A stretch of DNA of 64,000 bases from NCBI GenBank assembly GCA_037481815.1, contig JBBFKX010000001.1, positions 96,001 to 160,000 of the forward strand. The letters run 5' to 3'. Position numbers and translations under genes: made by a program. Under the pieces are notes generated by a model. It was not told where the DNA came from, did no database searches, and saw only the letters and a list, made by a program, of their open reading frames with translations. Positions 3,627 to 45,284 of the stretch are shown in pieces (within the stretch, counting starts at the first letter, position 1; each line of letters opens with the position of its first letter). The stretch comes from a candidate division WOR-3 bacterium. GTDB lineage: Bacteria; Hydrothermota; 32-111.

Positions 3627-6600
3627 ATGAAAAAATTTTTGTTTTTTCTTATATTTACTGTTTCAACTATCATTTTCTCTGAGCAAATTGTTGTTTATAT
3701 CAACGATGAAGGTGATTTCAATGAAATTGTAAAAATATATAACTCTCAATATTTTTACCATATCGAAGAATCATATCCCGTTATTCCATCATACAAAATT
3801 TTTATTCAATTTGATAATGACATATTGATAGATAGTTCCTATTTTTTGGTTGAAAGTATAGATACTTTAAAAGATTTTGCTTTGATCGCAGGTGAAAATC
3901 CGTTACCGAAAATTTTTTCTCCATTAAAAAGATCTTCTCTTAAACTTGTTAAGGGAGTTTTCCCTGAAGAAACTCATAGAATTTTCAAATCAAAAGCAAA
4001 TGATAAAATTTTTGTTTCAGGTTATGTAAACAATTTTTATTATGAAAATGGAAAGATTTTCAAAAGAAAAGGGAAACTTGTTATAGTTTATAAAAATCTT
4101 ACTTCCCCAGAAATTAATACCAAAAGTAAAAATGAATTTTTGATAATCACTTCTGACAGTTTGAAGTCATACTGGACTGACTATGTGAATTTAAAAAAAG
4201 ATTATACAGTTAACATAGTTGGTGTTTCCGAAATCTTTTCTTTGTATCCAGCAAAAACGAAAAGTCAGGCGATCAGAGAGTATATAAAAATTTTATATGA
4301 AACTGGAAAACTTGCTGGAGTTTTACTCGGAGGAGATGTTGATGTGATTCCACCTTTTTATGTTCAACTCGTTATAACGCCACAACTTTCTACTTCAGAT
4401 CAAACGATACCAACAGATAAATTTTTCTCATGTCTTGATGGTTATCCAAATTTTCTTAACGATACACTCTTTGATGATGCCGATTCGATTGACTTAGCAC
4501 CAGATATTCTTATCGGAAGAGTTCCTGTGAAAACAGGAGGTGATATTACAAATTTCATCCAGAAGGTTATAAAGTTTGAAAACCTCATTAACGATACGAT
4601 CCTTTTTGCTGCATCGTTTCTTGATCCCAATACTGATGGAAGTCAGAATATTGAAAATATGATAAAGAACATTCCCATCAAAAATCCCACAATCAAACTT
4701 TATGAAAGTTCAAACAATCTTTCCTCTTTTTCGTTCATCGAAAACATCAACAAAAGTCCATTTTTGATTTCACATGATGGACATGGTAATTATTCTGTGA
4801 TTCAAACTGGAATCGATTACACAACAAAAAGTAATTTTGATACTTTGAAAAATACAAACCCTGTTTTGATGTACTCCTTATCATGTCTTTCTGCTGCCTA
4901 TGATTATGATTGTGTTGCAGAGCATTTTATACTCTCTCCAAATGGTGGTGGCTTTTATATAGGTAATTCGAGATATGGATGGTATACTCCATATTTTGCG
5001 GGATTCGGAACAGGTGATATTTTAAACTATAACTTTTTCAAAATCATTTTGAACAATTACGACAATCCTTCTTTATCTTTAAATGAAACATTTTTGAATT
5101 TTATCGAAGAGATCAGATTGAAAAATGATTGGAGATGGCAGTTTTACACTTTGAACTATTTTGGGGATCCTTTGCTTAACCTGAAAACAAACAAAAAGAA
5201 GAGCACGGTTCAACTTGTAAAACCTGTTTATAAAAATGGTAATTTAAATCTTTCAGTTCAGACCAAAGATAGTTGTTTTGTGTCGATAGTTGGAAAAACT
5301 TTTTCGATTGATACTTTCGTTTATAAAGAGAAAAATATTTTATCTATAAAACTTGATAATTCCGACTCAATATTTTTATATGTAAAAAATAATGATGAAA
5401 CTGTTCTTGATACGACGATAATTTTAGATGATTTCTATTCAAAATCTATTTTTCTGAAAGATTACACTTTTCAAAAGATGAACGATACTTTTCTTTTAAA
5501 TCTTTATTTAACAGGTGATTCAACCGGTATTTTTTATATTAAAACTTTTTCCAATATTGATACTCTAAATTTCATAGATGATGATACAAATTTTGCTTTT
5601 CCTAATGATACGATTATCACTTTCAGATTTACAACAAAAAATGAACTAAAAAATTCAAGTTTGATAGGAGTAGTGCTTGAAGATGATACTTTGTATGTCG
5701 GGTATGGAAGGAATATTTCTGAAAACCTGAAAGTAAAATTCATACCTGAAAAACAACATTATATTTCTGGTGAAATCGTAAAATATAATGTTTATGTGAA
5801 CAGTTTTACAGGTGAAACACTGGGTTTAAATTTTAAAGGAAAGAACTTTCAGATATTGAAAGGTAAAAATATTTTTTCTGATAGTTTTACACTTGTTAAC
5901 ACTCAGCAGATTGAAACATTGAAACTTGATTTTACTTCTGCCCTTGAAACAAAAGTTTTAACATACAAACTTAACATCAACGATAACAATTCATACGAAA
6001 GTTTTGAAAATTCTCCTTCGATCAGGGTTGATTCTTCAACAGCGTTTTTCCATATAACGAACAGAAGAAACAACTTTGGTTTATATTCAATCTTTTCAGG
6101 ATACGAAACAGTTGAAACATATCCAGCAAACTATATAACAACATTTTATACTGATTCGTTTGTTTTTGATTCAAACTATATTTTTGGTTTCTCAGCGTTC
6201 GTTGATATAGAACCGGGAATGGATTACCTGGTTGTAAAACTTGTATCAGATTCTTTTGAGATGCCTTTGATAACTCTTTCACAGAGAACAGATGATTTTA
6301 AAAATTATATTTTCAACGCTTCCGACTTCAAAAATTTACACAACCAAAAAACGATTATTCAATTTTCTTTCTATTCTGAAAATGATCCTGTTCAATATAA
6401 AGGTGTTTATATCGATGATGTAACGCTTCCGGGTGAAAAAATAGATTTCTCTGGAGAAAAGTTTGTAAAAACTCCCGTTAGCAAAGATCTGTCGATTTCT
6501 TGTAGGATGGGATCACTTTTCATCGAGGGTGATTTTGATAAGATCAATCTTAAAGTTTATGATATCACCGGGAAAATCGTGTTTAGTAAAGAAATAAAGA

Positions 6601-6704
6601 AAGGTATCAAAACTTTAAAATTTGATAAACCTTCAGGGATATATTTTGTTAGAGTTGAAAACAAAGATAATGTCTCAACGAAAAAGATTATTCTGATAAA
6701 ATGA
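3627..6704 (+). CDS. Gingipain-like cysteine peptidase (family C25) with T9SS-type C-terminal sorting domain
   Basis: VLLGGDVDVIP, IGRVPV, catalytic HDGHG and SLSC, YFGDP. C-terminus VYDITGK...SGIYFVRV...TKKIILIK. Signal peptide. Confidence 0.9.
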   Translation: MKKFLFFLIFTVSTIIFSEQIVVYINDEGDFNEIVKIYNSQYFYHIEESYPVIPSYKIFIQFDNDILIDSSYFLVESIDTLKDFALIAGENPLPKIFSPLKRSSLKLVKGVFPEETHRIFKSKANDKIFVSGYVNNFYYENGKIFKRKGKLVIVYKNLTSPEINTKSKNEFLIITSDSLKSYWTDYVNLKKDYTVNIVGVSEIFSLYPAKTKSQAIREYIKILYETGKLAGVLLGGDVDVIPPFYVQLVITPQLSTSDQTIPTDKFFSCLDGYPNFLNDTLFDDADSIDLAPDILIGRVPVKTGGDITNFIQKVIKFENLINDTILFAASFLDPNTDGSQNIENMIKNIPIKNPTIKLYESSNNLSSFSFIENINKSPFLISHDGHGNYSVIQTGIDYTTKSNFDTLKNTNPVLMYSLSCLSAAYDYDCVAEHFILSPNGGGFYIGNSRYGWYTPYFAGFGTGDILNYNFFKIILNNYDNPSLSLNETFLNFIEEIRLKNDWRWQFYTLNYFGDPLLNLKTNKKKSTVQLVKPVYKNGNLNLSVQTKDSCFVSIVGKTFSIDTFVYKEKNILSIKLDNSDSIFLYVKNNDETVLDTTIILDDFYSKSIFLKDYTFQKMNDTFLLNLYLTGDSTGIFYIKTFSNIDTLNFIDDDTNFAFPNDTIITFRFTTKNELKNSSLIGVVLEDDTLYVGYGRNISENLKVKFIPEKQHYISGEIVKYNVYVNSFTGETLGLNFKGKNFQILKGKNIFSDSFTLVNTQQIETLKLDFTSALETKVLTYKLNINDNNSYESFENSPSIRVDSSTAFFHITNRRNNFGLYSIFSGYETVETYPANYITTFYTDSFVFDSNYIFGFSAFVDIEPGMDYLVVKLVSDSFEMPLITLSQRTDDFKNYIFNASDFKNLHNQKTIIQFSFYSENDPVQYKGVYIDDVTLPGEKIDFSGEKFVKTPVSKDLSISCRMGSLFIEGDFDKINLKVYDITGKIVFSKEIKKGIKTLKFDKPSGIYFVRVENKDNVSTKKIILIK

Positions 6705-38119: not shown

Positions 38120-39343
38120 ATGAAGAAGTTTTTTAATTTGATGATTTTTCTTCTTGTTATTTTATCTTTTTCTTGTGCGAAATCTGATAATGTAAAAAAG
38201 GTTGAAAATCAAGATAACACTTTTTCAAAAAATCTAAATTTTTACAATCTTTTTGGTTTTGAACTTTTGAACAGGTTGTATGATAAAGATGAAAATGTAG
38301 TTATATCTCCCTTCAGTATATCGAGTGCATTGGCAATAACATATGAAGGTGCAGGTGGAGAAACAGAAAAAGAGATAAAAAAGGTTTTTCATTTTCCTGA
38401 CAAGGAAGTTTTAAGGGGTATTTATTCAAAGGAGATCAGGTATTTTGATAAAGAATCAAAAGAGATTACTGTAAAGATATCGAATGGTTTATGGATGGAA
38501 AAGTCGTATAGTTTTAAGGATGAGTATCCAAAAACTGTAAAAGAAAACTATAAATCTTTTGCAGAAAAAGTTGATTTTGTAAATCAAACCGAAGAGTCAA
38601 GGTTAAAGATAAATAAATTTATAGAAGATTTTACCGAGCAAAAGATAAAAGATTTTTTACCAAAAGGGATAATCGATAAATCAACAACACTTGTTATAAC
38701 AAACGCAATATATTTCAACGCAATATGGAAAAAGCAATTTGAAAAGAAATATACCTTTGAAGAAGATTTTATTGTAGATGGGGATAAAAAAGTAAAATGT
38801 AAAATGATGTCAACAGATCTTGAACAACCTTTAAAATATTTTGAAAATGATAAATTTTTTATTGTTGAATTTCCCTATGCAGATACAAACTACTCTGCGA
38901 TATTTCTTGTTCCTTTTGATGGAATGAAAAGTATTTTCCCGCTTGATTATGTCGACTTAAAAAATTGTTTTGATTCAATGAGATTTGAAAAATTTGATAG
39001 AATATCTTTCCCAAAATTTAAACTTGAAAAAAAATATCTTCTTAACGATGTTTTGATCGAGATGGGGATGAAAAAATCCTTTACCCCTGAAGCCGATTTT
39101 TCATATATGACAGATTATAATGACCTTTACATAAGTAATGTTATACATCAATCTTTTTTGAAAGTTGATGAAGAAGGTAGTGAGGCAGCAGCAGCAACTG
39201 GTGTCATAATAGTTAAAGAAACAGCTGTTATTCAGAAGAGAATTTTAAAAATAAATAGACCATTTTTGTTTTTTATAGTTGAAAATCAAACAGGAGATAT
39301 TCTTTTTGTTGCGAAAATTGAAAATCCACATTTTGAAGAGTAA
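38120..39343 (+). CDS. Serpin, lipoprotein
   Basis: Lipobox SFSC; NVVISPFSI, NAIYFNAIW, hinge DEEGSEAAAAT, NRPFLF. Confidence 0.95.
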   Translation: MKKFFNLMIFLLVILSFSCAKSDNVKKVENQDNTFSKNLNFYNLFGFELLNRLYDKDENVVISPFSISSALAITYEGAGGETEKEIKKVFHFPDKEVLRGIYSKEIRYFDKESKEITVKISNGLWMEKSYSFKDEYPKTVKENYKSFAEKVDFVNQTEESRLKINKFIEDFTEQKIKDFLPKGIIDKSTTLVITNAIYFNAIWKKQFEKKYTFEEDFIVDGDKKVKCKMMSTDLEQPLKYFENDKFFIVEFPYADTNYSAIFLVPFDGMKSIFPLDYVDLKNCFDSMRFEKFDRISFPKFKLEKKYLLNDVLIEMGMKKSFTPEADFSYMTDYNDLYISNVIHQSFLKVDEEGSEAAAATGVIIVKETAVIQKRILKINRPFLFFIVENQTGDILFVAKIENPHFEE

Positions 39344-39465: not shown

Positions 39466-39945
39466 ATGGATGAAGTAAAAAAGGATATACAGGAACTCAT
39501 CCAGAAGGTTGAAGAGGAAGAAGATAAAAAGAAAAAAGAGGTAAAAACAAAAGATAAAAACATTGAAAAGGTCGCGAAAATAGTTACTTTTATTGTTATT
39601 TTTATCCTTTTTGTAGCATCGATATTTTTTAATATGAAAAAGTTTGAACAGATGAATAAACTTACTTTATCTGAGAGTGAAATAGAAGAGAACAAAAAGG
39701 TCTTTCTGTATCTTACGGTGATGAAGATAAAGAACTTTAAAGAACAGAATGGTTTTTTACCAGAAGATTTAAAAGATTTTGTGAATGAACAGGACTCTGT
39801 TGATTACAGTATTATGGATGATTCAATATTTGAACTTTCGATAAAACAAAATGGAAAGGTTATAATTTACAATTCAAAGGATGATCCCTTAACACTTCTT
39901 CCCGAGAAATTTAAAAATTTGATTTTAGAAGAGGAGGGAAAATGA
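39466..39945 (+). CDS. Hypothetical single-TM protein, pilin-accessory-like
   Basis: AAGGAG SD; one TM; NGFLPEDL segment resembling a pilin globular start. Confidence 0.6.
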   Translation: MDEVKKDIQELIQKVEEEEDKKKKEVKTKDKNIEKVAKIVTFIVIFILFVASIFFNMKKFEQMNKLTLSESEIEENKKVFLYLTVMKIKNFKEQNGFLPEDLKDFVNEQDSVDYSIMDDSIFELSIKQNGKVIIYNSKDDPLTLLPEKFKNLILEEEGK

Positions 39946-40406
39946 AGAAAGGATTTTCTTTGGTTGAGTTGATGGTTGTTATTTTGATTATATCAATAAT
40001 TGTTAATTTTGCACTTCCATCATTTTATGAAGCTAAAAAAACAGCAGAGGCAGCAAAAGTCATAACTGATTTTGAAGTTATTAGAGAAGCTGTTATCGCT
40101 TACTATGTTGATACTGGTAAATTCCCTCCTGATTATGGCCCTGGCACAGTACCAAAAGAATTAAAAAAATATTTACCAAAGGGATTTAAATTTAATTATA
40201 AACCACAAAAAGATATAAGGTATGACTGGGAAAATTGGATAGTCAACAATAAACCAAAACATCCAAAAACTGGAATACTCTATGGAATCTCTTTAACCAC
40301 AAAAGATAAAGCTCTTGTTAAAAAGGTTAAAGGTGTTTTTAAAGGTGCATTTCAGTACTCTTTAAATGATAATTATACTTTTGTTTTGGAGTATATCAAA
40401 AAGTAA
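39942..40406 (+). CDS. Type IV pilin / T2SS pseudopilin
   Basis: KKG|FSLVELMVV prepilin cleavage/methylation motif; YYVDTGKFP. Confidence 0.9.
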   Translation: MKKGFSLVELMVVILIISIIVNFALPSFYEAKKTAEAAKVITDFEVIREAVIAYYVDTGKFPPDYGPGTVPKELKKYLPKGFKFNYKPQKDIRYDWENWIVNNKPKHPKTGILYGISLTTKDKALVKKVKGVFKGAFQYSLNDNYTFVLEYIKK

Positions 40407-40539: not shown

Positions 40540-40586
40540 GAAATTAATAATTGACATTGAAAAAAACTGGAGTAAAATTAAATAAA

Positions 40587-41126
40587 ATGAAAAAATTTAT
40601 TATAATTTTTTTAATTTTGTCTTTAACATCACTTTCAATCTATTCCCAAACAGAACAATCTGATAGTTTAAAATTCAAGGAAGAAAGATTAAACAAAAAA
40701 CCTTTCTGCTGTGTACAGGTTTCACCTCTGTCAAACAACCTCAACATAGCGAAAGACAATTTGGTTTTTGGTTGTTGTGTTGGATCACCTGTTACTGGTT
40801 CAATAGTGGTATCAATTGTTGGATTTGTTTTTGTTTTGGTTGTAGGAATATTTGAAGTAATTTTTACTTTAGGACAGAGTAAAACTATTATCAATTCTTT
40901 AGGTCAAATAGGTGTTCCAATTTTTATAACTCTTATTGCACTTTCAGGTTTACTCAGTTTATTCTCAATAATTTTTGTTCCGTATTATGATTATTCAGAT
41001 AAAGATATGAAAAAAACTTATAAAAATTTTATGGTTTTACTTGAAAGAGGAATCGGTTGCCTTGGTTCTGTAAGTGTTTCACTTATTTCAATCTATTTGA
41101 TTTTAAAAAATAATTCAACAGAATAA
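40587..41126 (+). CDS. Hypothetical exported/membrane protein with CC motifs
   Basis: Signal-like MKKFII start; several TMs; promoter TTGACA-16-TAAAAT just upstream. Confidence 0.6.
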   Translation: MKKFIIIFLILSLTSLSIYSQTEQSDSLKFKEERLNKKPFCCVQVSPLSNNLNIAKDNLVFGCCVGSPVTGSIVVSIVGFVFVLVVGIFEVIFTLGQSKTIINSLGQIGVPIFITLIALSGLLSLFSIIFVPYYDYSDKDMKKTYKNFMVLLERGIGCLGSVSVSLISIYLILKNNSTE

Positions 41127-41128
41127 AA

Positions 41129-41851
41129 ATGGTAGTAGTTAAAGTAGAAAATTTGAAAAAAAATTTTGGAAAAGTTCAGGCACTGAAAGGGATAAACTTC
41201 GAAGTTAATCAAGGTGAAATTTTTGGTTTGATAGGTCCAAACGGAGCAGGGAAATCTACATGTCTTAGAATACTTTCGACGATTCTGAGTAAAAGTGAAG
41301 GAAATGTAGAAATTTTTGGATACGATATCTCAAGAAAAATGGAAATAAAAAAGATAATCTCCTATCTGCCGGAAGATGCTGGTGCTTACAAAAACCTGAA
41401 AGGGATTGATTATTTAAAATTTTTTGTGAATTTTTTCAAAGATGGAAGAGATATCAAAAAAACTCTTGAATATGGAATTGAGATTTCATCTTTGAAAGAT
41501 AGGTTAAACGATAAGATTGATACCTATTCTAAGGGTATGATGAGAAAACTTTTGATAGCAAGAAGTTTGATGATCGAACCGAAACTTGCCATACTTGATG
41601 AACCGACTTCTGGACTTGATGTTATCAATGCAACCCAGATCAGAGATCTTATAAAACAAAAAGCAAAAGAGGGTACAACCTTTATAGTTTCATCTCACAA
41701 TATGCTTGAAGTCGATTATCTGTGTGATCGAATATCACTGATAAATGAGGGAATTATTGTTGAAAGTGGTAGTGTAAAAAAGTTAAAAGAGAAATACAGT
41801 GTTGAGAATATTGAAAAAATATTCGTTAAAGTTGTTGGAGAAAAAAAATGA
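41129..41851 (+). CDS. ABC transporter ATP-binding protein (NatA-like)
   Basis: GPNGAGKS, YSKGM, LDEPTSGLD, SSH. Confidence 0.93.
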   Translation: MVVVKVENLKKNFGKVQALKGINFEVNQGEIFGLIGPNGAGKSTCLRILSTILSKSEGNVEIFGYDISRKMEIKKIISYLPEDAGAYKNLKGIDYLKFFVNFFKDGRDIKKTLEYGIEISSLKDRLNDKIDTYSKGMMRKLLIARSLMIEPKLAILDEPTSGLDVINATQIRDLIKQKAKEGTTFIVSSHNMLEVDYLCDRISLINEGIIVESGSVKKLKEKYSVENIEKIFVKVVGEKK

Positions 41852-43101
41852 TTTTTAACATTATTAAAAAGGAAGTAAAAGAACTTTTAAATAGATCAAC
41901 AATAATTTCTCTTGTCTTTGTATCTTTTGTTTTAGGTTTTATAGGTAAATATGTTTCGAATGCTGAAAAAAATGTTGAGATAAGGTCTGCCAATATAGTA
42001 ATCGTTGATAAAGATTCAACAGAAATTTCAAAGAAATTTTCTGATCTGATTTTAAAATATTCGAAGAATGACTTTGAAGAAAAAATTTTTGAAGATAAAC
42101 TAAAAACACTCACAAAAGAAGGTGGATCTATAATCATTATACAAAAAGGTTTTCAAGATGAGATTTTGAAAGGGGGAAAAGGAGAAATAAAAGTAGAATA
42201 TTTTTTGAAAGGAACTGGACTTTTCGATTTTATGTCTTCAGATGTTATTGGAAACGCTCTTTTATATGCAAAAAATGAATTGACCAAATTTCTTCTTTTG
42301 AACAAAAGAATAAAGAATGAGAATATTCTTGATCCCATATCAGTCAAAGCACAGAGTATAAAGGTTAAAGAAAAAATTTTTCAAAATGTAGATCCTAAAA
42401 CCTTATACTCTTTTCTTGGGAATCAAACAAATTTTGTACCTGTTATAATCATGATGCTTCTTGTGATGTCGGGAGGAATGATAATATCATCGATGGGGAT
42501 GGAAAAAGAGAATAAAACCTTGGAAACTCTTCTTACGATGCCTGTTGAGAGAAGAGATATCGTTCTTGGAAAAATAATCGGTGGTGGAGTTGTTGGAATG
42601 ATAATGGCTTCGATATATATGGCAGGATTTTACAATTATATGAAAGGTTTTTCCGAAAATCTTTCATACATCCCCGATTTTAAAGTTTTTTATTTTTCAG
42701 ATTATATTTTGATAGGTCTTTCAATATTTTTATCATTGTTGTCTGGACTTTCAATGTGTTTATTGCTTGGTCTGTTTGCAAAAGATTACAAGTCGGCTCA
42801 GACATTGACAATGCCGGTGTCAATACTTGCAATAATACCTATGTTTTTAACGATGTTTAAAGATTTTGATACTTTATCTCTGCCTTTTAAAACAATAGTT
42901 TTTTTAATACCATTTTCACATCCGATGATGGCGATGAAACTTTTATTTTTTGATCAGTATAAAATGGTTTTTTACGGAATTTTATATAACCTTTTCTTTT
43001 TTATAATTCTGGTTATTATACTTGTTTATATCTTCAGTACTGACTATATAATTACAGGCAAAGAATTGGAGAGGTTTTTCAAAAGAAAAAAATCTCTTTA
43101 A
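41848..43101 (+). CDS. ABC-2 type permease (NatB-like)
   Basis: EKENKTLETLLTMPV..GK motif; TM pattern. Confidence 0.9.
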   Translation: MIFNIIKKEVKELLNRSTIISLVFVSFVLGFIGKYVSNAEKNVEIRSANIVIVDKDSTEISKKFSDLILKYSKNDFEEKIFEDKLKTLTKEGGSIIIIQKGFQDEILKGGKGEIKVEYFLKGTGLFDFMSSDVIGNALLYAKNELTKFLLLNKRIKNENILDPISVKAQSIKVKEKIFQNVDPKTLYSFLGNQTNFVPVIIMMLLVMSGGMIISSMGMEKENKTLETLLTMPVERRDIVLGKIIGGGVVGMIMASIYMAGFYNYMKGFSENLSYIPDFKVFYFSDYILIGLSIFLSLLSGLSMCLLLGLFAKDYKSAQTLTMPVSILAIIPMFLTMFKDFDTLSLPFKTIVFLIPFSHPMMAMKLLFFDQYKMVFYGILYNLFFFIILVIILVYIFSTDYIITGKELERFFKRKKSL

Positions 43102-43102
43102 A

Positions 43103-43134
43103 TCAAAAAACCCCAAAAGTTTGGGGTTTTTTGA
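43103..43134. terminator. Bidirectional intrinsic terminator between convergent genes
   Basis: TCAAAAAACCCCAAA-AG-TTTGGGGTTTTTTGA. Confidence 0.85.
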
Positions 43135-43166
43135 AAGGAGAGATGAGGTTTTATAAAGAGATGGTA

Positions 43167-43748
43167 TTATTTTAAAATAACAATTTTTTCTTTATAAATA
43201 TTTTTCCCACTCTTCAAGAGTATCAGATATTTCCCCGCTGGAAGAGAGGTTAAGTCACTTTTAATTATTTCACCGCTTAAATTATAAACTTCTATTTCAA
43301 ACTCCCCAGGATTTTTAAGATCTTTTGCCTTTGAAAAGGTTACAGGATTTTGAGGATTTACTGGATTTGGTGGAAGAATATTTTGCCTTCTCTTATCAGG
43401 AGATGATTTTAATTGTATTGAGTTTTCGTCATCAGGCAAAACTGGTTGTGGTGGAATAATATAGTTTCTGTGGTTGTCGGGAAGTGAATTTAATTGAGTT
43501 GAATTCTCCTCATCAGGAAGCACCGGTTGTGGGGGTATTATATAGTTTCTGTGTGTCTCAGGTAAAGAATAAAGTTGAGTTGAACTGTTGTCGTCAGGTA
43601 GAACCGGTTGAGGTGGAATTATATAATTTCTATGATTATCAGGTTGGGATTGAATATTATAATTAACAAATTCAGCATCATTTTTATCAGCCAAAAGAAC
43701 TATACTTGCAAGAAGTATCAAGAGTGAAACCGTTAAAAGTTTTTTCAT
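43167..43748 (-). CDS. Secreted protein with 3+1 tandem 27-aa proline-rich repeats and a T9SS-type C-terminal sorting tail
   Basis: AAGGAGG SD; signal peptide; HRNYIIPPQPVLPD x3 plus RRQNILPPNPVNP; tail EVYNLSGE..LPAGKYLI..KEKIVILK. Confidence 0.85.
   Translation of the reverse strand: MKKLLTVSLLILLASIVLLADKNDAEFVNYNIQSQPDNHRNYIIPPQPVLPDDNSSTQLYSLPETHRNYIIPPQPVLPDEENSTQLNSLPDNHRNYIIPPQPVLPDDENSIQLKSSPDKRRQNILPPNPVNPQNPVTFSKAKDLKNPGEFEIEVYNLSGEIIKSDLTSLPAGKYLILLKSGKNIYKEKIVILK
43353..43643 (-). repeat. Intragenic 81-nt tandem repeats
   Basis: 27-codon period; core protein-identical but codon-divergent. Confidence 0.9.
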
Positions 43749-43776
43749 AAAACCTCCTTTTTTTCTGTAATTATAC

Positions 43777-43792
43777 TCAATAATCGTGCCAA
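43777..43792 (-). promoter_or_regulatory. sigma54 (-24/-12) promoter of the repeat-protein gene
   Basis: Minus strand TTGGCACG-ATTA-TTGA, matching TGGCACG-N4-TTGC with one mismatch; about 29 nt before ATG. Confidence 0.7.
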
Positions 43793-43843
43793 ACTTTAAG
43801 TTCCTCTGAAAACATAATTTGAAATTTTGTTAAAAGGTCAAAA

Positions 43844-43861
43844 TGTAAATTTTATTTTACA
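43844..43861. promoter_or_regulatory. Palindrome TGTAAA-N6-TTTACA, candidate bEBP upstream activating site
   Basis: TGT-N12-ACA dyad about 50-70 bp upstream of the sigma54 box. Confidence 0.45.
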
Positions 43862-43945
43862 CCTGTCTTTATTTAAAACTTATTTTTTGACCTATTGATT
43901 TTTTCAATTTATGTGGTATACTTCACGAAAAAAAGGAGAAACTAA

Positions 43946-44137
43946 ATGGCTAATAGATGTGAAGTTTGCGGAAAAGGACCTCAGTTTGGCTCAAATATTT
44001 CACATGCACATAATGTGACAAAGAAAAAAAGGATGCCAAATTTAAGAAGAGTAAAAGCAAAAGTAGATAATAAAATTAAATATATCTATGTTTGCTCAAG
44101 ATGTCTCCGTTCAGGTTCAGTTCAAAAAGTTGTTTAA
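43946..44137 (+). CDS. rpmB: 50S ribosomal protein L28
   Basis: CEVCGKGPQFGSNISHAHN..PNL..VCSRCLRSG. Confidence 0.97.
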   Translation: MANRCEVCGKGPQFGSNISHAHNVTKKKRMPNLRRVKAKVDNKIKYIYVCSRCLRSGSVQKVV

Positions 44138-44195
44138 CTATTGACATCATAAAGTTATTCAATTATTATCCTAATATAAAATATTAGGAGTTGAA

Positions 44196-45284
44196 ATGAA
44201 AAAAATTTTAATGTTTATACTTTTGCTCTTTACATATGTACTTATCTTTTCAACCGCCTCCCAGGCAGGTGCAGTTTTTCTACTGATTTATCCCGGTTCA
44301 AGAGCAGTTTCTCTGGGAAACTCTTATACTGCGTTATCAGATGATGCACTCGCAACCTATTACAACCCTGCAGGGATGGGTTTGCAGGAAAAGAAAGATA
44401 TAGTACTTATGCATTCTCCATGGCTTGTAGGCCTTGGAGATGATATGTATTATGAATTTCTTTCGGCTGTTATTCCGACAAATTATGGAGTTTGGGGTGG
44501 AAATGTTATCTATCTTACAACAGGTGAGATATCAGCAGAAGAAAATAATGACCCAACTGCCATATGGACTACTTTTGACTTAGCTTTATCTCTTTCATAT
44601 TCATACAAAATAAAAAATGATATCTCCTTGGGAGTAACAGGCAAATTCATCTATTCGTATCTTGCTCCTGATTGGGTTATTCAAAGATACATGGGAGAGG
44701 AGAGAGGAGGGCAGGGACAATCGGTTGCTCTGGATTTTGGTTTTTTAAAGAAATTTGGAACAAAAACATCACTTGGTATCTCCCTTTCAAATCTTGGACC
44801 TGGACTCAAATATCTTGCTGATGGCTCAGTAGATGATCTCCCAAGAACTCTTAGAATCGGGTTTGCTCAAACGATTATCGAGAATGAGTTGAACAAGTTA
44901 CTTTTCACAACAGATCTTACAAAGGTCATTGCAGGAATAAAACTCGATTCACTTTCAAAATCTGATTTTATTTTTGAACCATCAAAAATTCTCGATAAAT
45001 ATTATAACAATGTGGACCCTGTAACCGGCGATACCTTATATCTCTCAATGCTTGAAGCTGAATTTCTTGACACCTGGCTTGGGGCTGGAATTGAATATAT
45101 TTATTACAATCTTCTTTCTTTGAGGTTGGGATATTTCCTTGACTATTACGGGCAAAGGATGGGATTCACATTCGGTGGTGGTATTCAGGTAAAAAACAGT
45201 TTCAGACTTGATCTTGGTATAGATTCTGATATCTATTCTTTTCCAACTTCAAACTATAGAATCTCAATCGGTTTCAGGTGGTGA
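44196..45284 (+). CDS. PorV/PorQ-family outer-membrane beta-barrel
   Basis: AVFLLIYPGSRAVSLG, YYNPAG, SNLGP, LPRTLRIG, LRLGY; terminal FRW. Confidence 0.85.
   Translation: MKKILMFILLLFTYVLIFSTASQAGAVFLLIYPGSRAVSLGNSYTALSDDALATYYNPAGMGLQEKKDIVLMHSPWLVGLGDDMYYEFLSAVIPTNYGVWGGNVIYLTTGEISAEENNDPTAIWTTFDLALSLSYSYKIKNDISLGVTGKFIYSYLAPDWVIQRYMGEERGGQGQSVALDFGFLKKFGTKTSLGISLSNLGPGLKYLADGSVDDLPRTLRIGFAQTIIENELNKLLFTTDLTKVIAGIKLDSLSKSDFIFEPSKILDKYYNNVDPVTGDTLYLSMLEAEFLDTWLGAGIEYIYYNLLSLRLGYFLDYYGQRMGFTFGGGIQVKNSFRLDLGIDSDIYSFPTSNYRISIGFRW

Follow-up and report, generated by a model that had tools for sequence, protein, structure and literature searches.

What is the role of a protein that appears to consist of little more than a repeated 14-residue motif and a predicted export tail? 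This question is raised by a gene in a 64,000-nucleotide stretch of the genome of a candidate division WOR-3 bacterium (assembly GCA_037481815.1, contig JBBFKX010000001.1, positions 96,001 to 160,000), referred to below as the window. The coding sequence (CDS), at window positions 43167..43748 on the minus strand, is complete and encodes 193 amino acids plus the stop codon. An earlier reading of the letters (the original prediction) had proposed a multi-core peptide precursor, exported by a type IX secretion system (T9SS)-like route and cut after Arg to release proline-rich peptides, possibly by a C25 protease encoded at 3627..6704. We found that the repeat protein belongs to a real, strongly selected and very narrow family. 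The original prediction was partly supported: the export tail, the selection on the cores and the lack of a fold were borne out, whereas the processing, the free drift of the linkers and the dedicated protease were not. We tentatively favour another role, that of a minimal T9SS-type cargo whose multivalent short linear motif would be on display at the cell surface.

The protein opens with a signal-peptide-like stretch and 18 variable residues, which are followed by three 27-residue units, a variant unit and a 60-residue C-terminal domain (CTD). The three units carry an identical core, HRNYIIPPQPVLPD, with the synonymous codon differences exactly as first quoted, and the fourth, variant unit that had been announced was present, reading RRQNILPPNPVNP / RRQNILPPNPVNPQ. 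At the DNA level, Tandem Repeats Finder reported a period of 81 with 2.7 copies and 76% matches (43426..43644). Pairs of cores exhibited 6-8 synonymous differences per about 9.7 synonymous sites and zero real replacements, the value "nd 1.0" obtained for core pair 2-3 being a path-averaging artefact of CTT versus TTG, both of which encode Leu. Counted from the codons, at least 12 independent synonymous changes stand against 0 replacements across the three cores. Among the same units, the proportion of nonsynonymous differences (pN) in the linkers ranged from 0.19 to 0.34. Independent contigs from two other studies (X2 record 2 and X3 record 3) cover the entire array without any difference, and the three copies are therefore not an assembly artefact.

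Selection was also determined region by region, as the ratio of pN to the proportion of synonymous differences (pS), between the window gene and four orthologues. The cores were the most constrained part of the protein (pN/pS of 0.03-0.09), with values of 0.07-0.31 for the terminal unit, 0.17-0.35 for the sorting domain, 0.06-0.45 for the linkers, and 0.4-1.2 for the signal peptide together with the N-terminal segment. Since the ratio of the core was below that of the sorting domain, the core is more constrained than the folded secretion signal; purifying selection on the cores is very strong, whether copies within the gene or genes of different species are compared. When the window gene was compared with its closest orthologue (L002), pS was just 0.11-0.13 over the signal peptide and N-terminal segment (43635..43748) and 0.42-0.68 in the rest of the gene; this low value may reflect a recent recombination patch over the 5′ end and the promoter. 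A scan for the motif in 8591 six-frame open reading frames (ORFs) of the genome returned the repeat-protein ORF alone, besides one single chance match, which rules out the motif being a generic pre-CTD linker or processing signal.

A word-indexed database search identified seven proteins including the query, and all of those with a named source came from candidate division WOR-3. A profile of the passenger (about 113 residues, between the signal peptide and the sorting domain), searched against 1.84 billion representatives, gave nine matches, six of which are real family members; the long matches P0011, P0012 and P0013 were rejected as unrelated low-complexity repeat proteins. No fused or longer form of the repeat protein was found among these representatives. 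Among 60 relatives, matches that included the passenger were observed in all five genomes of the same genus and in two of the three genomes of another genus in the same family; the other five relatives matched (G016, G025, G027, G050 and G060) did so through the sorting domain of large proteins alone. Genome and metagenome scans led to the same lineages again, with one record titled candidate division TA06 bacterium 32_111. The family is labelled "hypothetical" or "T9SS type A sorting domain-containing protein" in the databases; when the protein was scanned, the passenger was not covered by any Pfam or NCBIfam model, and an ESM Atlas feature search on the passenger gave no usable match. One short protein, P0005 (109 aa, on a 2233-nt contig), matches the window protein through unit 2 and then continues as unrelated sequence, probably because of a frameshift, or because a repeat has been collapsed in so short a contig.

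Every member follows a common plan, with a putative signal peptide, one to four internal units, one terminal RR-unit and the CTD, and carries 2-5 motifs. As had been expected of true relatives, the cores were conserved in all homologues, with a varying copy number. Three sequence subfamilies, roughly 34% identical to one another, were distinguished by their motifs: HRNYIIPPQPV[LI]PD, [HNY]REGI[IV][IV]PPIYY, and Y[KR][DE]NLVPPI. We compared 41 distinct units from 13 proteins, aligned on the PP pair. Two aliphatic residues (I/V/L) preceded PP, except for one LP and one GP, and a basic residue was located 5-6 residues upstream of PP in all 41 units. The basic residue that had been noticed before the cores is therefore a general feature, with the reservation that it is Arg in 39 units and Lys in the other 2. 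Most units also kept S-x-P-[DE] before the basic residue and D-D-N-S after the core, giving the consensus S-x-P-[DE]-x-[HR]-R-x-x-I-I-P-P-x-P-x-x-P-D-D.

The linkers, which the original prediction had described as drifting, do vary in composition among the window units. However, their pattern D-D-N-S-x-x-L-x-S-x-P is conserved across the subfamilies, and the PP-to-PP period is 25-30 residues, mostly 26 or 27, in all three of them. Since both pattern and length are kept, the linkers drift less than first seemed and, judging from these alignments, the module is the whole 27-residue unit, its core being very strong and the second motif, in the linker, weaker. A D/E-x-N-x-S/T sequon occurs in two of the three internal linkers of the window protein; N-glycosylation of the linkers was rejected, as no STT3/PglB was found and the other subfamilies have not retained this sequon. 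A resemblance of the motif to SH3 class I ligands and to plant CLE peptides was likewise dismissed because the spacing does not fit.

Copy number differed even between near-identical strains. One 90%-identity cluster contains proteins of 139, 166 and 220 aa with one, two and four cores, respectively, and another contains proteins of 199 and 225 aa. The three units of L001 are near-identical in DNA, their few differences being I/V replacements. The L001 array is therefore young, resulting from a recent amplification, whereas the window array is old, with saturated synonymous sites; amplification has thus occurred more than once.

In the AlphaFold model, residues 22-140 had a predicted local distance difference test (pLDDT) score below 50 and no secondary structure. 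The repeats were thus predicted to adopt no stable fold, and the alternative outcome of a single stable domain was not seen; a role as a mere linker is unlikely, as there is nothing for the array to link. The passenger contains 17.7% Pro and 33% N/Q/S/T, with a grand average of hydropathy (GRAVY) of -1.16, an isoelectric point (pI) of 4.6 and a net charge of -7. No enzymatic domain was found in the protein by a Pfam scan, as first stated. The N-terminus has the typical sequence pattern of a signal peptide, and the sorting domain was the sole confident part of the model.

The C-terminus matched the T9SS sorting model TIGR04183 with 24.7 bits (cut-off 23; residues 134-191 of 193), and Pfam PF18962 with 20.7, below the cut-off of 27. 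The best Foldseek match of the modelled domain was 8glk_D (E 0.06, root-mean-square deviation 2.4 over 54 columns), and the matches, all weak but consistent, were the NucA substrate CTD in the T9SS translocon (8glk_D), HBP35, the mirolase CTD and the FspA CTD. A TonB-like reading (N-terminal helix, Pro-rich spacer and C-domain) was rejected, since no TonB family was matched and the C-domain is instead that of a T9SS cargo. In the genome (1.58 Mb, 95% complete), TIGR04183 gave 52 matches, 44 of them over the cut-off, and the repeat-protein ORF was the shortest complete frame bearing a CTD (220 aa from stop to stop); the next in size, of 266 and 387 aa, have ordinary, non-repetitive passengers. 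The proposal that the tail serves a T9SS-like export was further upheld by the machinery encoded in the genome: an SprA-like frame of 1816 aa (350 bits versus a cut-off of 200), three PorV/PorQ-family genes over the 90-bit cut-off of PorV_fam (out of six matches), and a PorU-like C25 frame. This WOR-3 bacterium thus combines about 44 T9SS cargo genes and SprA-like, PorV/PorQ-family and PorU-like C25 genes with no recognisable GldK/GldM, and may possess a reduced T9SS-type system, either devoid of a PorKLMN-type motor/ring or with very divergent versions of it.

A Sec signal, an unstructured motif array of changeable copy number and a surface-sorting signal form the plan of monoderm motif-display proteins, and display is therefore the reading that we prefer, if tentatively. 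According to this scheme, the protein would be exported by Sec with removal of its signal peptide; the sorting domain, given its family membership, would then be recognised and the protein would pass through the SprA/PorV translocon. By analogy with Bacteroidota, a PorU-like C25 sortase would remove the sorting domain just after the terminal RR-unit, and the array would be attached to, or shed from, the cell surface. There, the 2-5 motifs would act as multivalent binding epitopes for a putative partner, probably in a polyproline-II or extended form, and the gain or loss of 81-bp units would tune valency.

Several points weigh against this scheme. The invariant cores, the preceding basic residue and the variable copy number fit a cleaved precursor equally well. 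The AlphaFold model rests on a 9-row alignment, and copy numbers of near-identical 81-bp units obtained from short reads may be wrong; indeed, in G003 the array falls across contig ends, and in G005 a run of Ns breaks it. Moreover, the best PorU-like C25 frame reached 227 bits, below the cut-off of 420, and neither GldM (TIGR03517) nor GldK (TIGR03525) was found in the 95%-complete genome, a result that should be read as "not found" rather than "absent", as the GldM model had no match in any control genome and no search was made for GldL or GldN. The machinery for export is therefore recognisable just in part, and the model of surface attachment known from Bacteroidota may not apply.

Among the alternatives, the multi-core precursor survives best, even though we consider it unlikely. 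In this case, a secreted Arg/Lys-specific protease, either a C25 paralogue or another enzyme, would cut after the conserved basic residue of each unit. The products would be proline-rich peptides of 26-27 aa, or shorter trimmed ones, acting as putative signals, inhibitors or toxins. Identical cores that each follow R or K in 41 out of 41 units, a last unit that is always dibasic (RR), a copy number varying from one to four cores plus the terminal unit, and the location of the strongest constraint in the cores are all consistent with such a precursor, as is an unstructured, hence protease-accessible, passenger. However, linkers conserved in pattern and length, with pN/pS down to 0.06, are unexpected for disposable spacers, no defined C-terminal cleavage site is visible in the units, and the two K units would be skipped by a strictly Arg-specific enzyme. 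The products would also be acidic or neutral: the 27-aa pieces putatively obtained by cutting after Arg have net charges of -2.1, -3.1 and -0.2 (approximately -2, -3 and 0), which weakens the suggestion of an antimicrobial product. No RiPP-type enzyme (RiPP, ribosomally synthesised and post-translationally modified peptide) adjoins the repeat-protein gene, according to a Pfam scan of the neighbouring genes, and a search of the open-access literature found no T9SS cargo described as a peptide precursor.

The C25 peptidase that had been put forward as the processing enzyme is a protein of 1025 aa with its own CTD. A profile of its catalytic part reached gingipain R (1cvr_A, E 7e-14); a phmmer search of the whole protein against PDB gave no match, so that gingipain R was reached by the profile alone. 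The invariant H236 and C270 (numbered on a 410-residue piece, window 4077..5306) lie in "GHG" and "slsC" consensus stretches, which in the alignment fall on "GHG" and "vaC" of the gingipain (RgpB) chain, indicating that the His/Cys pair is kept. An invariant Asp is two columns away from the column of the residue that we take to be the S1 Asp of RgpB, beside an 8-residue indel, and the enzyme may or may not be specific for Arg. This copy and several other secreted C25 peptidases of the genome could, in principle, serve a precursor. The case for this particular enzyme was nevertheless weakened by its distance of 36 kb from the repeat-protein gene, by its several paralogues, and by the presence of its orthologues (47-55% identity) in G006, G007, G009 and G010, relatives in which the repeat protein was not found; no dedicated protease co-occurs with the family. 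The likeness between the two CTDs, to which the original prediction had pointed, is real but generic: the two domains are identical at only 16 of 58 positions, and that of the repeat protein is one of the 52 TIGR04183 matches. A complex prediction of the C25 catalytic domain with residues 30-95 (two units) returned a score of 0.00, which gives no verdict and counts neither way. C25 homologues were present in 59 of the 61 genomes searched (G000-G060). In several genomes the matches numbered 10 or more, with a maximum of 13, and most of them lay in frames of 1000-2500 aa.

It is rather improbable that the protein is instead an accessory or regulatory T9SS cargo resembling PorA, with a sorting domain and a terminal unit that occupy, or report on, PorV, the translocon or a sensor kinase, and with no external target. 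PorA (PGN_0123) of Porphyromonas gingivalis is described as a 246-aa cargo with a folded, FimH-like N-domain (PMC7712824), whose CTD binds PorV and the kinase PorY (PMC7712824, PMC12152298). The repeat protein is the smallest CTD protein of its genome, its gene lies beside the best-scoring PorV-family gene in all genus members for which the context is available, and that of the second subfamily adjoins PAS/histidine-kinase genes. However, the gene is divergent from the rpmB-porV pair and has its own terminator, and outside the genus it is no longer found beside a PorV-family gene. The repeated motif, and not the sorting domain, is under the strongest selection, 2-5 motif copies have no obvious use in a regulator, and residues 22-140 have no predicted fold comparable to the PorA N-domain. 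Finally, a passive surface coat or spacer, i.e., a protease-resistant acidic proline-rich brush or a mineral/cation-binding layer with no specific partner, would suit an acidic, Pro-rich and hydrophilic passenger in an organism that exports many peptidases, but is very unlikely, as a bulk role leaves both the fixed period and a letter-perfect 14-residue core at saturated synonymous divergence unexplained.

The features of the locus are listed in Table 1.

Table 1. Features of the repeat-protein locus, in window coordinates.
Feature	Position	Strand	Basis
Complete CDS (P0001)	43167..43748	-	ORF call, orthologues in relatives
Shine-Dalgarno AGGAGG, 4 nt 5′ of ATG	43753..43758	-	Direct sequence reading
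Signal-peptide-like n/h/c region, residues 1-20: MKK, hydrophobic run, LLA-D (putative cleavage between A and D)	43689..43748	-	Sequence; helix 3-22 in model
Variable N-terminal segment, residues 21-38, least constrained part	43635..43688	-	pN/pS about 0.5-1.2
Core 1, HRNYIIPPQPVLPD, residues 39-52	43593..43634	-	Codon comparison, orthologue pN/pS
Linker 1, DNSSTQLYSLPET, residues 53-65	43554..43592	-	Codon comparison, unit alignment
Core 2, HRNYIIPPQPVLPD, residues 66-79	43512..43553	-	Codon comparison, orthologue pN/pS
Linker 2, EENSTQLNSLPDN, residues 80-92	43473..43511	-	Codon comparison, unit alignment
Core 3, HRNYIIPPQPVLPD, residues 93-106	43431..43472	-	Codon comparison, orthologue pN/pS
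Linker 3, DENSIQLKSSPDK, residues 107-119	43392..43430	-	Codon comparison, unit alignment
Terminal variant unit RRQNILPPNPVNPQ, residues 120-133, running into the NP.. start of the sorting domain	43350..43391	-	Alignments of family members
T9SS type A C-terminal sorting domain, residues 134-193	43170..43349	-	TIGR04183, pLDDT 80-86, Foldseek 8glk_D
Terminator-like hairpin, U-runs on both strands, between the repeat-protein gene and the convergent ABC-2 permease gene	43103..43134	.	Folding
PorV/PorQ-family outer-membrane protein gene, behind rpmB	44196..45284	+	NF033709, 198 bits versus cut-off 90

The repeat-protein gene is convergent with an ABC-2 permease gene (41848..43101) and divergent from rpmB (43946..44137). 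The hairpin found just past its stop codon has a folding free energy of -19.3 kcal/mol (z -6.7 and -4.1), and none of 200 shuffles was equally stable. A simple terminator scan returned 0 sites despite this strong fold, and an Rfam scan of 42500..44500 gave nothing but two sub-threshold matches, both of which were on the hairpin. With such neighbours and a 3′ hairpin, the gene looks like its own transcription unit; a look-up of 19 sequencing runs returned no RNA run. The PorV/PorQ-family gene, which is divergently transcribed behind rpmB, is therefore context rather than part of the same operon; it is found in the same synteny in the genus.

Other genes of the window were also recorded. A full-length serpin (PF00079, 340 bits) is encoded at 38120..39343 (+), a few genes upstream, in a genome that is rich in secreted peptidases. 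Next, at 39466..40406 (+) and 40551..41126 (+), come a 159-aa ORF that matched nothing in Pfam at the threshold used, a pilin-like gene whose product has a methylation motif at its N-terminus, and a gene for a Cys-rich multi-pass membrane protein outside any Pfam family. Genes for an ABC ATPase and the ABC-2 permease follow. The gene order from the 159-aa ORF to the permease is also kept in L001 and L016. In the second subfamily, from the other genus (L008, L009 and L018), the repeat-protein gene converges on a histidine-kinase gene and, in L018, also follows the gene of a large membrane PAS sensor kinase. In another metagenome, we observed an unrelated 191-aa protein (L019:464-1036 (+)) with a signal peptide, a low-complexity passenger in which a D-T-L-x-[FY] motif occurs three times, and a T9SS CTD; motif-only mini-cargo may thus be a wider class.

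T9SS cargo is usually thought of as large folded enzymes or adhesins, and the repeat-protein family is an extreme case: a secretion tail with nothing but a short, letter-perfect linear motif of variable copy number that occurs solely in one family of an uncultured, small-genome phylum. It provides a handle on the role of T9SS-type systems outside Bacteroidota, and on whether disordered arrays of multivalent motifs, or secreted peptides in multiple copies, are in use at the surface of diderm bacteria; a motif of this length lends itself to synthesis. Nothing was found in the open-access full-text literature on disordered, proline-rich or tandem-repeat small T9SS cargo, or on T9SS in WOR-3. Should the protein prove, against our expectation, to be an exported polyprotein cut after each Arg/Lys by a secreted cysteine peptidase, delivering 2-5 copies of a proline-rich peptide of about 27 residues (or a trimmed one) for signalling or inhibition outside the cell, no earlier multi-core secreted peptide precursor would have been linked to type IX secretion, and the WOR-3 candidate phylum would have its first candidate for peptide signalling.

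Multi-copy secreted precursors with proven proteases and detected peptides include apidaecin prepropeptides, yeast alpha-factor, fungal KEX2-processed repeat proteins and Bacillus Phr pro-peptides. The repeat protein resembles these in its putative signal peptide, in identical cores that each follow a basic residue, in acidic spacers and in variable copy number, but differs from them in its conserved spacers, in the acidic nature of the putative products and in the folded secretion domain that follows the array. Proline-rich antimicrobial peptides of the apidaecin type are strongly cationic and Pro/Arg-rich, unlike the acidic or neutral 27-aa products and the passenger pI observed here.

With T9SS type A CTD cargo (TIGR04183/PF18962; SprA-PorV-bound substrates in PDB 8glk and 8glj), the protein shares the N-terminal signal-peptide-like start, the terminal beta-sandwich sorting domain, and the presence of SprA, PorV-family and PorU-like genes in the genome. 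According to PMC7712824, such cargo usually carries folded enzymatic or adhesin domains together with an Ig-like domain, whereas the passenger here is solely a disordered motif array; moreover, the organism is a WOR-3 bacterium and not a member of Bacteroidota, and GldK/GldM were not found. PorA is likewise very small for a cargo, with much of its length taken up by the sorting domain, and is associated with PorV, just as a PorV-family gene neighbours the repeat-protein gene, but it has a folded N-domain and no repeats. In the repeat protein, the constraint lies in the repeats, and there is no sequence similarity to PorA beyond the CTD class.

The fibronectin-binding repeats of FnBPA in Staphylococcus aureus and the FPPPP repeats of ActA in Listeria are disordered multivalent arrays with a C-terminal surface-sorting signal. 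They differ from the repeat protein in their LPXTG/sortase or membrane anchor, as opposed to a T9SS CTD, in their motifs and in their known host partners, and are not homologous to it; what they have in common with it is a signal peptide (putative in the repeat protein), an unstructured array of a short conserved motif, a variable copy number and a surface-sorting signal.

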